The notes below the pieces were generated by a model. The model saw only the letters and a program-made list of their open reading frames with translations. It had not been told where the DNA came from and ran no database searches. This document shows positions 25,011 through 27,266 of a stretch of 64,000 nt of DNA, piece after piece. How positions within the stretch are numbered: the stretch's first letter is position 1; each line of letters begins with the position of its first letter. The DNA comes from a phage, in NCBI GenBank assembly GCA_036252695.1, contig GCA_036252695.1_4122.1; one strand, 5' to 3'. The position numbers were made by a program, and so were the translations under genes.

Positions 25011-25142
25011 ATGAATGGACTAAAGAAATTTGGTAAAGATTTTCTAAAATGTATACGCTATACATATGATGCAAACCCAGAAATGACTGCTATTGTGGGT
25101 GTGTTTATTACACTTGTTGTATTAAGTTTTATTGTGGTGTAA
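25011..25142 (+). CDS. small C-terminally anchored membrane peptide (43 aa)
   Basis: AAGGAAA RBS; hydrophobic C-terminal helix; below ORF track cutoff. Confidence 0.3.
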   Translation: MNGLKKFGKDFLKCIRYTYDANPEMTAIVGVFITLVVLSFIVV

Positions 25143-25146
25143 AAGT

Positions 25147-25350
25147 ATGATTGAAATTAATGCTGATATATATTGTAGTGCATCACCCAATTACTTCATT
25201 TATGCACTAAGTACATTTGGTGAAACTGAAGGTGAAACTTTTGTTTTAGTAGAGAATACTACATGGTTCAAAACAAGTAATAAAATTCCGAAAGATGTTT
25301 TGGAAACATATGTTCGTATTGAAAATAAAAACATATATGTAATTTTATAG
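25147..25350 (+). CDS. hypothetical protein
   Basis: ORF track 25132..25350; ATG at 25147. Confidence 0.35.
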   Translation: MIEINADIYCSASPNYFIYALSTFGETEGETFVLVENTTWFKTSNKIPKDVLETYVRIENKNIYVIL

Positions 25351-25357
25351 GTAACAT

Positions 25358-25768
25358 ATGATTGAAATGGAAGGAACTCTGGTGTATGATCCAGAACGTG
25401 GCACTATGAAAAAGAAGAAGGACTTCTGGTTAGTACTACAACTTCCATTACAGTTGGTTCGATACTACCAGTACTTCATCAGAACTGACTTACATATTGA
25501 TATTAAAGACCCACAATGGGGAGCACATGTCAGTATCGTTCGTGGTGAAGTGCCACCAAATCCAGAGTACTGGAAAAAGTACGATGGAATGAAAGTAAAG
25601 ATAAAGTTCAATCCTTGTATTGAGATAGTAAAAGATAAAAAGAATCCAGGTTCATTCTTTATCATTGAATTTGAAGATGATTTCATCACACATATTAGAA
25701 ATGAACTAGGACTACCAACCAAGTACTTTAAATATCACATCACTGTAGGTAGAACCTACTACGATTAA
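25358..25768 (+). CDS. 2H phosphoesterase superfamily protein (LigT/cyclic phosphodiesterase-like; possible Acb1-like anti-CBASS nuclease)
   Basis: Two H-x-(S/T)-x motifs (AHVSIV and YHITVG) about 70 residues apart in a ~136-aa protein, the hallmark of the 2H fold. Confidence 0.55.
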   Translation: MIEMEGTLVYDPERGTMKKKKDFWLVLQLPLQLVRYYQYFIRTDLHIDIKDPQWGAHVSIVRGEVPPNPEYWKKYDGMKVKIKFNPCIEIVKDKKNPGSFFIIEFEDDFITHIRNELGLPTKYFKYHITVGRTYYD

Positions 25769-25903
25769 TGTGGTTTTTACAGTAAATATGTCTTGTAATA
25801 AAATAAAAATATGCTATACTACTTAAACATTTGAAAAGAACGTTTTTGTACTGTAGAAAGTCCGATGAGGCTTTTACAAATGGCCTCTTTGCCATCTTTG
25901 TGA

Positions 25904-26863
25904 TTGCCCATCTTAACAATCAACAAAGGAGGCGTTTTGAAACAAGCGAAAAAAGCACTGAAAACTAAGACTACTTATGGTGTTCTAGTTTGCACAGTAC
26001 TTGTCGCTGCGATTGGATTTTATGGTTTTTCTCAAAATGATCGTGTATCATCATCGGACGAAAGTCAGGTACACAATTTAAAACCACAAGTTACGCAAAT
26101 TCAAAAGCAGGAATTACCAAAGGTAGAAATATCAAAGGATGTTCCACGCGGCGAGAAGCATTATACGGTTCAACCTGGTGATAGTTATTATTCTATTGCT
26201 AAAAAGTTTAAACCTAAAAATGTACAACTTGAAGAGTATGTTATTTTGTTGAAAAATATCAATTTAAATGCTACTCTTCATACTTCTCAGGGTATCTTTA
26301 TCCCAACAAAAGAGGATTTGAAGAACGTATTGTTACCAGATGTGACTGTACTGTTTGATTATAATGATCCAGAAATTGTCAATCACATCAAAGAAGCTGA
26401 AGGTTCAATTGAATTTCAGTCCAAGAACAAACGCCGTTTACTTGGTGGGAAAGTCGGAGTTCCTTTCCACAATTCTAAATTTCATCCCTACAAGGACATG
26501 AAAGGTAATTATACAATAGGTTATGGGCATTATTTGGGTAGAAAAGAATCTGATGCGATTAAGTACAGAAACGGTATTACCAAAGCTCAAGCCAATAAAC
26601 TTTTAATGCAAGATATGAAAAGAACATATAATGACTTTTTATTATTGATGCAGAAAAAAGAAGCAGTAAATCTGACCAAAGAACAACAACGTATTCTTTA
26701 TGAAATGTCCTATACAATGGGTGTTGATAAATTAGCAACGTTTAATAAACTTTGGAAAAGTGTGAAAAATGATAACCCTAAGAAATTTAAAAAAGAAATT
26801 ATGAATTCCTTATGGTATCGTCAAGTTACAAACCGAGCAGATTTGTTGTTAAGTTCACTCTAA
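25904..26863 (+). CDS. LysM-domain lysozyme (T4 e-like, GH24) with N-terminal transmembrane anchor; start codon uncertain (TTG)
   Basis: C-terminal half matches T4 lysozyme (YKDxxGxYTIGxGH, WYxQxxNRA); LysM motif YTVQPGDSYYSIAKKF; hydrophobic helix near N-terminus; no in-frame ATG before the domain, strong AAAGGAGG at 25925-25932. Confidence 0.75.
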   Translation: MPILTINKGGVLKQAKKALKTKTTYGVLVCTVLVAAIGFYGFSQNDRVSSSDESQVHNLKPQVTQIQKQELPKVEISKDVPRGEKHYTVQPGDSYYSIAKKFKPKNVQLEEYVILLKNINLNATLHTSQGIFIPTKEDLKNVLLPDVTVLFDYNDPEIVNHIKEAEGSIEFQSKNKRRLLGGKVGVPFHNSKFHPYKDMKGNYTIGYGHYLGRKESDAIKYRNGITKAQANKLLMQDMKRTYNDFLLLMQKKEAVNLTKEQQRILYEMSYTMGVDKLATFNKLWKSVKNDNPKKFKKEIMNSLWYRQVTNRADLLLSSL

Positions 26864-26880
26864 AAAAAGGAAGGTGAAGT

Positions 26881-27213
26881 ATGCTAAATCTAAATATCCA
26901 AGGCAACGTTGATATCACTCCAGCAATCCAAGATGCTATTTACAATGAAGCAAAAAGTCTGGATAAGTACCGTACTTCTTCAGTACTAGACATTGGTGTT
27001 CATGTTAAGAAAGAGCATAAAACTCAATATGCTGTAACTTTAACTGCTGGTAGTAAATCAGTAACTGCTGATGATGCTGATTTGTATAAAGCAATTGTTG
27101 AATCTTTTGATAAGATGGAAACTGTATTCAGTAAAGACAAAAGCATTAAATTACACCGCCGAAACCATCCAGAACACCCAGTTCTTGATGATTTGACAGA
27201 AAACGAAGAGTAA
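26881..27213 (+). CDS. hpf: ribosome hibernation-promoting factor (HPF/YfiA/RaiA family)
   Basis: Alignable along its length with E. coli HPF (MLNLNIQGNVDIT.. versus MQLNITGNNVEIT..; DLYKAI versus DMYAAI); AAGGAAGG RBS. Confidence 0.65.
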   Translation: MLNLNIQGNVDITPAIQDAIYNEAKSLDKYRTSSVLDIGVHVKKEHKTQYAVTLTAGSKSVTADDADLYKAIVESFDKMETVFSKDKSIKLHRRNHPEHPVLDDLTENEE

Positions 27214-27224
27214 TATATACTAAA

Positions 27225-27249
27225 GGGACAGATTAATTCTGTCCCTTTT
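27225..27249 (+). terminator. rho-independent terminator
   Basis: GGGACAGA / CTGTCCC hairpin plus T-run. Confidence 0.5.
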
Positions 27250-27266
27250 CTTATGGAGTTTTAATT

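Follow-up and report, generated by a model that had tools for sequence, protein, structure and literature searches.

Does the phage gene at positions 25937-26863 encode a lysis enzyme that reaches the cell wall by means of its own export signal, and how could the synthesis of such an enzyme be kept in check? The gene lies in a stretch of phage DNA of 64,000 nucleotides (NCBI GenBank assembly GCA_036252695.1, contig GCA_036252695.1_4122.1), called the window below, and a preliminary description made from the letters had drawn attention to its lysozyme frame, the hydrophobic helix in front of it and a short open reading frame (ORF) just upstream. With moderate confidence, we read the locus as encoding an annotated, exported LysM-lysozyme of 308 amino acids, likely a holin-free lysis enzyme, whose synthesis is throttled at translation initiation. 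The gene is real and clearly above chance expectation, and all sequence statements of the preliminary description hold. The protein itself is not new, since GenBank and one paper already give its architecture, TTG start and probable role; the weak start kept across genera and the gene-specific leader hairpin are new here and modestly interesting. The gene and its ribosome-binding site (RBS) are as follows.

25937..26863, + strand: coding sequence of the transmembrane (TM)-LysM-GH24 lysozyme, 927 nt, 308 amino acids, TTG start, TAA stop at 26861-26863, corresponding to G17_00390.

25925..25932, + strand: Shine-Dalgarno (SD) sequence AAAGGAGG, 4 nt 5' of TTG 25937, read from the sequence.

Over positions 25300-27300, the window matches Escherichia phage vB_EcoM_G17 (MK327931, Asteriusvirus, 371 kb) at 100% identity and is 96-99.8% identical to 121Q, PBECO4, phAPEC6, Sharanji and other members of Asteriusvirus, the 121Q orthologue region having 96% nucleotide identity to the window. 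Orthologues of the lysozyme are 121Q gp532, phAPEC6 gp293, CBB_187, GAP32 gp180 and RaK2 gp506. The family is limited to Rak2-like jumbo phages (69 clusters at 90% identity, all of about 300-330 amino acids), and the homologue search found no sequences between 43% identity and unrelated LysM matches. One homologue comes from an E. coli O157 deposit, on a contig of 352 kb that is a jumbo phage within a bacterial assembly, and in the CMSTMSU record (MH494197) the lysozyme gene is frameshifted and split.

The frame had been described as lacking an in-frame ATG start, and indeed the first in-frame ATG is that of Met189. It is open from 25904 through the stop, with in-frame TTGs at 25904 and 25937, and both had been proposed as starts; the second stood up to comparison and the first did not. 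The G17 record annotates the gene from TTG 25937 to the stop at 26863, at coordinates identical to ours, and the equivalent start is called in every annotated record, including those of 121Q, Turkey3, WPEC3, UE-S1 and phAPEC6. The published supplement likewise lists a TTG start for CBB_187 (PMC5259590). A 1-nt indel between the two TTGs breaks the frame of TTG 25904 in Turkey3, WPEC3 and UE-S1, and this codon is absent in A4 and in other genera; UE-S1 and A4 have no in-frame start upstream of the annotated one, and in other genera the frame opens just 3-5 codons before it. The strong SD reported before TTG 25937 is present, and GGAGG or GGAG is kept in the SD of all clades compared. Because all annotated records use 25937, and relatives either lack 25904 or have it out of frame, we take the predicted start at TTG 25937 as settled. 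This start retains the hydrophobic helix, and no start was found elsewhere that would remove it. Reading of the sequence gave no in-frame ATG, GTG or TTG between the helix and the LysM domain, and thus an isoform lacking the helix, made by internal initiation, is not expected.

The protein can be divided into the following parts.

25970..26032, + strand: hydrophobic segment TTYGVLVCTVLVAAIGFYGFS, residues 12-32, 21 uncharged residues after a +5 N-terminus.

26153..26302, + strand: LysM domain, residues 73-122 (Pfam PF01476 and AlphaFold model).

26363..26860, + strand: GH24 T4-type lysozyme domain, approximately residues 143-308 (PF00959, PDB profile search, Foldseek and invariant columns).

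26399-26401, 26495-26497 and 26513-26515, + strand: catalytic Glu155, Asp187 and Thr193, respectively (invariant columns).

26405-26488, + strand: insertion between the catalytic Glu and Asp, residues 157-184, about 28 conserved residues.

An architecture of LysM and T4-type lysozyme behind an N-terminal helix had been read from the sequence, and it is borne out by Pfam, the AlphaFold model, the active site in 47 homologues and the published account of CBB_187, in which an N-terminal TM segment is followed by a LysM-like middle ('very apparent' in 121Q) and a C-terminal lysozyme (PMC5259590, Buttimer et al. 2017). The match to Phage_lysozyme (PF00959) is above the curated threshold (45.1 bits vs cutoff 22.3), the PDB profile search matched T4 lysozyme at 8e-14, and almost all of the Foldseek top 50 of the model are T4 lysozyme, with a TM-score of about 0.66 normalised to the target. 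The model, built with 47 homologues, is confident from residue 73 on, and its lysozyme domain is helical with predicted local confidence (pLDDT) of 86-96. For the LysM domain, the Pfam match (22.4 bits vs cutoff 20.9) spans profile positions 1-17 only; in the model, residues 75-121 fold as beta-alpha-alpha-beta (strand 75-77, helices 84-91 and 98-108, strand 119-121; pLDDT 86-91), and there are precomputed PF01476 matches on two homologues. Glu155, Asp187 and Thr193 are invariant in the alignment of 47 homologues and likewise in 13 reference-phage orthologues. Their spacing is E-X31-D-X5-T owing to the conserved insertion, while the canonical spacing of the GH24 catalytic triad is E-X8-D-X5-T (PMC9239132). 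The insertion conserves Gln161, Arg166, Leu168, Gly171, Phe182 and Pro184. Sequence alignments to T4 lysozyme start after the Glu, which is spanned by the fold alignment only. These data show a T4-type (GH24) predicted muramidase domain with an apparently intact Glu-Asp-Thr triad. No further lysozyme paralogues were found in the 64-kb window. In the model, the insertion takes the form of additional beta-strands, with high confidence.

The single N-terminal hydrophobic helix of the preliminary description agrees with charge and hydropathy of the sequence, placing it at residues 12-32. The N-terminus of the lysozyme carries five lysines, and the segment has a Kyte-Doolittle hydropathy over 19 residues (KD19) of 1.86 and consists for 48% of Gly, Ala, Ser, Thr or Cys. 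Because the +5 N-terminus precedes 21 uncharged residues, an N-in/C-out topology is predicted. The helix may be a stable anchor, a signal-arrest-release (SAR) domain or a cleaved signal, each of which would imply Sec export. Ala24-Ala25, invariant in the 13 reference-phage orthologues and nearly invariant in the 47 homologues, could possibly be a signal-peptidase site. Between the helix and the LysM domain the model has a linker of about 40 residues with low confidence, probably unstructured. Read in this way, the enzyme would consist of a basic cytoplasmic N-terminus, one helix, the linker, a peptidoglycan-binding LysM domain and the GH24 domain; the helix would direct Sec-dependent export, LysM and lysozyme would stand in the periplasm, tethered to the inner membrane or released, and the enzyme would reach the cell wall without a holin.

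Such an enzyme would most likely be the lysis enzyme of the phage, a positional counterpart of T4 gene e. Previously, CBB_187 has been presented as a predicted endolysin with homologues in GAP32 gp180, 121Q gp532 and RaK2 gp506 (PMC5259590). Asteriusvirus has three GH24 paralogues. A 96-kDa hub and a soluble lysozyme of 162 amino acids are encoded by adjacent genes beside a gp25-like gene (121Q genes 587, 586 and 585, the baseplate module), and the gene under study is the only GH24 gene outside this module. On balance, it appears to be the best endolysin candidate, as published. In 121Q, genes 586-587 (L068 43346-46001) have the 162-residue GH24 protein between the gp5-like hub and the gp25-like gene.

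Since an exported lysozyme is dangerous to the cell, its synthesis would be expected to be throttled, and it is at translation initiation that we place this control. Two features lead to this view: a weak TTG or GTG start is kept across genera, in 20/21 distinct leaders, and a dedicated structured leader is formed by a hairpin, P1, and CU-rich segments complementary to the SD (anti-SD segments). Twenty-one distinct leaders, representing at least five genera, were compared: the start was TTG in 15 (Asteriusvirus, the Eneladusvirus/Mimasvirus type including XbC2, Kaldavass and four metagenomic relatives) and GTG in six (the Kae01/Munch-like and EJP2/Hallingskeid clades). ATG was found in RaK2 only, where the SD is 11 nt away and the spacer is able to pair with an upstream segment. 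Non-ATG starts occur in 4/48 ORFs of the window with a strong SD. A change to ATG has almost never been fixed, though the remaining leader has diverged beyond alignment, and because of this the comparison argues for selection for weak initiation at the lysozyme gene.

25852..25878, + strand: P1 hairpin, UGUA-G-AAAGUC, loop CGAUGA, GGCUUU-UACA, in the 5' leader (conservation).

P1 has the family form UGUA-G-AAAGUC, a loop of 5-8 nt and GRCUUU-(G)-URCA, and is located upstream of every family member. Across 22 leaders, drawn from at least five genera, it hardly varies and 98% of alignment cells are paired: six pairs never vary, and four vary only between U-A and U-G or between A-U and G-U, so that pairing is kept in the + strand RNA only. 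The hairpin is present as a single copy in the 64-kb window and once per genome in IMG/VR, only in contigs that also carry the lysozyme gene (14 contigs); in bacterial genomes its pattern gave seven scattered matches vs about 17 expected by chance, which is no enrichment. It also stays linked to the lysozyme despite differing upstream genes (2H-phosphoesterase-like in Asteriusvirus and RaK2, an unrelated ORF elsewhere). The loop length shifts by 1-2 nt, which excludes coding, and coding potential was rejected across the leader on either strand, the loop indels not being multiples of three. A repeated promoter or operator motif was rejected as well, given the single copy per window and genome, the loops of 5-8 nt and the G-U-compatible changes on the + strand only. 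The covariance models of Rfam 15 gave nothing better than E = 0.5 in 25600-26100, far below gathering scores, and no Rfam family reaches its gathering score anywhere in the window. P1 is preceded in other genera by P0, a hairpin or palindrome that varies and shows compensatory changes; P0 is weak or absent in the window, may act at the DNA or the RNA level, and in the EJP2 clade coincides in part with a good promoter -10.

Each clade has its own pyrimidine-rich segment 3' of P1 that is complementary to its own SD context. The pairings are CCUUAUU with AAUAAGGAGG, CUCCUGUUGCU with AGCAAAUAGGAGG, CACUG with CAGUG (including the GUG start) and, in the window, GCCAUCUUUGU with ACAAAGGAGGC. The predicted cost of opening positions -13 to +3 has a family median of 9.5 kcal/mol vs 3.9 for the 48 window genes with a strong SD; 21/21 leaders are above this 3.9 median and 67% are above the 90th percentile of the 48 genes. 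In 11/21 leaders (the Eneladus/Mimas-type, EJP2-type and RaK2 groups) the duplex has z = -3 to -8 vs shuffles. Within the Mimas/Eneladus clade, the SD helix is 83% paired with two compensatory pairs, and the alternative pairing, formed by the anti-SD segment and an upstream SD mimic, reaches 88% with one such pair. A duplex matrix across clades was also tried as a covariation test and was uninformative, as GGAGG is common to all clades.

From these data we tentatively propose that the leader may be a dedicated, undescribed cis-regulatory RNA of Rak2-like jumbo phages, an idea that we hold with rather low confidence. P1 would dock a phage or host factor, and mutually exclusive pairings (of the P1 3' strand or the SD mimic with the anti-SD, or of the anti-SD with the SD) would, together with the weak start, gate the exported endolysin, so that lysis timing would be set largely by translation and not by a holin.

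Several observations weigh against reading the locus as a throttled, holin-free lysis gene. In the leader, all changes in P1 are one-sided, which makes the covariation proof weak, and the shuffle controls for pairing within the Mimas/Eneladus clade were not significant. In the window, the opening cost is 5.4-6.1 kcal/mol (rank 11/48) and the best duplex with the SD segment has -13.8 kcal/mol with z = -1.26 vs shuffles; SD occlusion was therefore dropped as a striking feature of the window and kept as a family trend. In the helix, most other clades are more hydrophobic, with an LLLAAA core and 30-37% weakly hydrophobic residues (family median 37%), and such a Leu-rich helix bears more resemblance to a stable anchor than to a SAR domain. 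The toxicity or growth inhibition reported on induction of CBB_187, which speaks for the endolysin, is given as 'data not shown' (PMC5259590). No holin, pinholin or spanin was identified near the gene. The soluble paralogue of 162 amino acids could be a serious rival as the true endolysin, since its orthologue LysUE1 is antibacterial and muralytic in vitro (PMC12805682). Finally, the gene is found among RNA and translation genes behind a promoter-like site, a position that would fit early or middle expression rather than late.

25793..25820, + strand: sigma-70-type promoter-like site, TTGTAA, 16 nt, TG-n-TATACT (consensus scan).

At this site UE-S1 has TTGACT/TATAAT and Turkey3 has TTGATA/TATACT; a putative sigma-70-type promoter is located directly upstream of the gene in Asteriusvirus. 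Together with the non-structural neighbourhood, this raises the alternative that the product is an accessory enzyme of periplasmic wall remodelling, made early or in the middle of infection at low level, which loosens peptidoglycan (for example, for enlargement or bulging of the cell), while the soluble GH24 protein of 162 amino acids performs the final lysis. A weak start and an occluded RBS would suit a low-dose enzyme, and the muralytic activity of LysUE1 would suit the division of labour. Cells infected with Sharanji, a relative, filament and bulge well before bursting, an observation that also counts for the lysis enzyme, as bulging would agree with damage done to the wall from the periplasm. 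However, the place of the soluble paralogue within the baseplate module, flanked by the gp5-like hub and the gp25-like gene (CBB_238-240 in CBB), suggests a tail role, no other lysozyme is found outside that module, and the published prediction (PMC5259590) favours an endolysin. We consider wall remodelling as the main role to be rather unlikely, and the lysis enzyme throttled at initiation is still the reading we prefer.

Could the short ORF upstream of the gene be the element that couples expression of the lysozyme to its leader? The seven-codon upstream ORF (uORF) pointed out in the preliminary description is present in the sequence.

25880..25903, + strand: uORF MASLPSL, ATG at 25880, TGA at 25901-25903, read from the sequence.

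As a functional leader peptide, its translation could melt the pairing of anti-SD and SD, or could terminate at the TGA and reinitiate at TTG 25904, and in either way couple expression of the main gene. The uORF coincides with the CU-rich anti-SD-like repeats GGCCTCTTTG (25882-25891) and CCATCTTTGTG (25892-25902), read as the codons GCC UCU UUG and CCA UCU UUG, its stop abuts TTG 25904, GAGG lies 9 nt upstream (25867-25870), and the uORF is kept in 6/7 Asteriusvirus representatives. In dinucleotide shuffles of the 168-nt intergenic region, a closed ATG uORF appeared in 91%, which places it near chance expectation, and just 7% had an SD-like 4-mer upstream of it. However, A4 has the uORF cut to three codons (MAS and a stop), Turkey3, WPEC3 and UE-S1 have TTG 25904 in another frame, and the GAGG that had been taken as the uORF's own belongs to the 3' strand of the conserved hairpin P1, where pairing is predicted for it. 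For leader-peptide attenuation the leader ORF would be conserved together with the pairings, whereas in the other genera P1, the occluding helix and the weak start are retained and the uORF is lacking. The conservation within Asteriusvirus is equally accounted for by the overlapping RNA pairing. The uORF is thus most likely a by-product of the CU-rich anti-SD segments and not a functional leader peptide; we hold a function in coupling to be improbable, and the significance first given to the uORF has not stood.

The last alternative, that the gene product is a virion-associated lysozyme, is suggested by annotation labels in G17, Munch and SE_PL and by a similarity, limited to the catalytic domain, to PHROG profiles of baseplate-hub and internal-virion lysozymes, but it is highly improbable: the labels stem from generic GH24 domain matches, the protein has a predicted N-terminal export or anchor signal and its gene is far from structural genes, mass spectrometry of phAPEC6 virions detected the 96-kDa lysozyme gp241 but not gp293, CBB_187 is absent from the structural proteome table of CBB (PMC5259590), and in Kae01, for which a concentrated lysate yielded 220 phage proteins, the lysozyme orthologue has no flag from liquid chromatography-tandem mass spectrometry (LC-MS/MS) and its HPF neighbour is flagged. 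The evidence on virions thus agrees with the lysis enzyme that we and others have favoured.

Downstream, the lysozyme is apparently joined in one transcription unit by a second gene.

26881..27213, + strand: HPF/RaiA gene (PF02482, 3.3e-10), 17 nt after the lysozyme stop.

27222..27248, no strand assigned: terminator-like hairpin closing the lysozyme-HPF unit (hairpin scan; the G17 record annotates a terminator here).

The order of lysozyme and HPF is kept across at least five genera and is interrupted only in GAP32 (by HNH genes) and Kae01 (by two small ORFs). It was the HPF/RaiA orthologue of Kae01, a homologue of ribosome hibernation factors, that was detected by LC-MS/MS in the phage preparation. 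Between HPF and the next gene, at 27193-27248, a promoter close to consensus (TTGACA, 17 nt, TATACT) and a bidirectional terminator-like hairpin overlap each other. The gene upstream of the lysozyme (25358-25768, + strand) is 2H phosphoesterase-like, with two H-x-T/S motifs and a PF22547 match of 25.8 bits, below the cutoff of 27; such a gene precedes the lysozyme in RaK2 too and is not found there in Mimasvirus or Eneladusvirus. Further upstream (25011-25142, + strand), an ORF of 43 amino acids with a C-terminal hydrophobic helix matches in size and relative position the 46-residue 'membrane protein' encoded a few genes upstream of the lysozyme in other genera. Homology between the two is not supported (E = 0.49, rank 5/883), which leaves the ORF as a possible holin or releasin candidate by position only. 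Downstream, two overlapping tandem paralogues (27852-28268 and 28255-28677, + strand; 138 and 140 amino acids) both have TTG starts and a common C-terminal motif, GTLP...QY.FI.DTFGID..YQ. A CCA-adding tRNA nucleotidyltransferase (28813-29925, + strand) is followed by a Nudix hydrolase according to the G17 annotation; there are no tRNA genes in the 64-kb window.

The finding of the gene matters little in itself, as the protein and its likely role have already been published. However, the weak start and the gene-specific leader make the hypothesis of translational gating testable; if confirmed, they would suggest that translation initiation is where some jumbo phages control an endolysin that needs no holin, which would be relevant to specialists of phage lysis. 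Among the members of the large Rak2-like group, which has no defined lysis cassette, holin or spanin, are therapeutic candidates against E. coli, Klebsiella and Salmonella.

Among known systems, the nearest are the relatives themselves. The CBB_187 family is alike in protein family, three-part architecture, TTG start and position beside the HPF gene, with no difference at the protein level; the cross-genus weak start, the P1 hairpin, the RBS occlusion and the Glu-Asp insertion, described here, are not part of the earlier account, in which CBB_187 was likened to SAR endolysins (PMC5259590). The SAR endolysins, represented by P1 Lyz, phage 21 R, phiKMV gp45 and Mu gp22 (PMC9239132), share with this protein a basic N-terminal stretch, an uncharged hydrophobic segment, a periplasmic muramidase and holin-free export (both predicted here). 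In the helix, residues that are weakly hydrophobic make up 48% in the window protein vs 10/20 in Mu gp22, and the strongly basic N-terminus is also alike in these two. In Mu gp22, Lys6 and Lys7 make release dependent on a releasin (PMC9239132); neither a pinholin nor a releasin (DUF2730) was found near the lysozyme gene. The 'definitive test' of a SAR endolysin is its release from the inner membrane upon depolarisation or by a pinholin (PMC9239132). Unlike in the SAR endolysins, the linker of about 40 residues and the LysM domain stand here between the helix (12-32) and the catalytic domain (about 143 on), the only Cys, Cys19, is inside the helix with none in the enzyme domain, and the triad has the long spacing given above instead of E-X8-D-X5-T. 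P1 Lyz is activated by disulfide isomerisation and phage 21 R by refolding of the SAR helix. With the helix and the catalytic domain so far apart, the helix would not be able to become part of the refolded enzyme, as it does in phage 21 R, and with the only Cys in the helix, a disulfide switch of the P1 type would be impossible, which speaks against direct activation of an adjoining catalytic domain by the helix.

Another mode of holin-independent export is that of Lys44 of the Oenococcus phage fOg44, a Sec-exported endolysin with a cleavable signal peptide. Endolysins of this type are alike in their export and in being modular enzymes with a cell-wall-binding domain, whereas they act in Gram-positive hosts and have proven signal-peptidase cleavage, and the segment of 19-21 uncharged residues found here is anchor-like.

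The closest precedent for the proposed occluded lysozyme leader appears to be T4 gene e, whose early transcripts bury the ribosome-binding site in a hairpin, so that the lysozyme is not made too early, and whose late promoters, within the 5' strand of that hairpin, give transcripts that can be translated (PMC3014915, Uzan & Miller 2010). A late promoter of the T4 type (TATAAATA with at most one mismatch, or ATAAATA) was found in none of the 21 leaders. The neighbourhood of T4 e is similar in flavour, with Nudix and tRNA-related genes. The two systems are alike in the catalytic fold and residues, in transcription from upstream promoters and in an SD and start that can be sequestered in an RNA helix (predicted here). 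They differ in that T4 e is soluble and holin-dependent and has an ATG start with late promoters inside the hairpin, while the gene of the Rak2-like phages has a TTG or GTG start and the extra hairpin P1.

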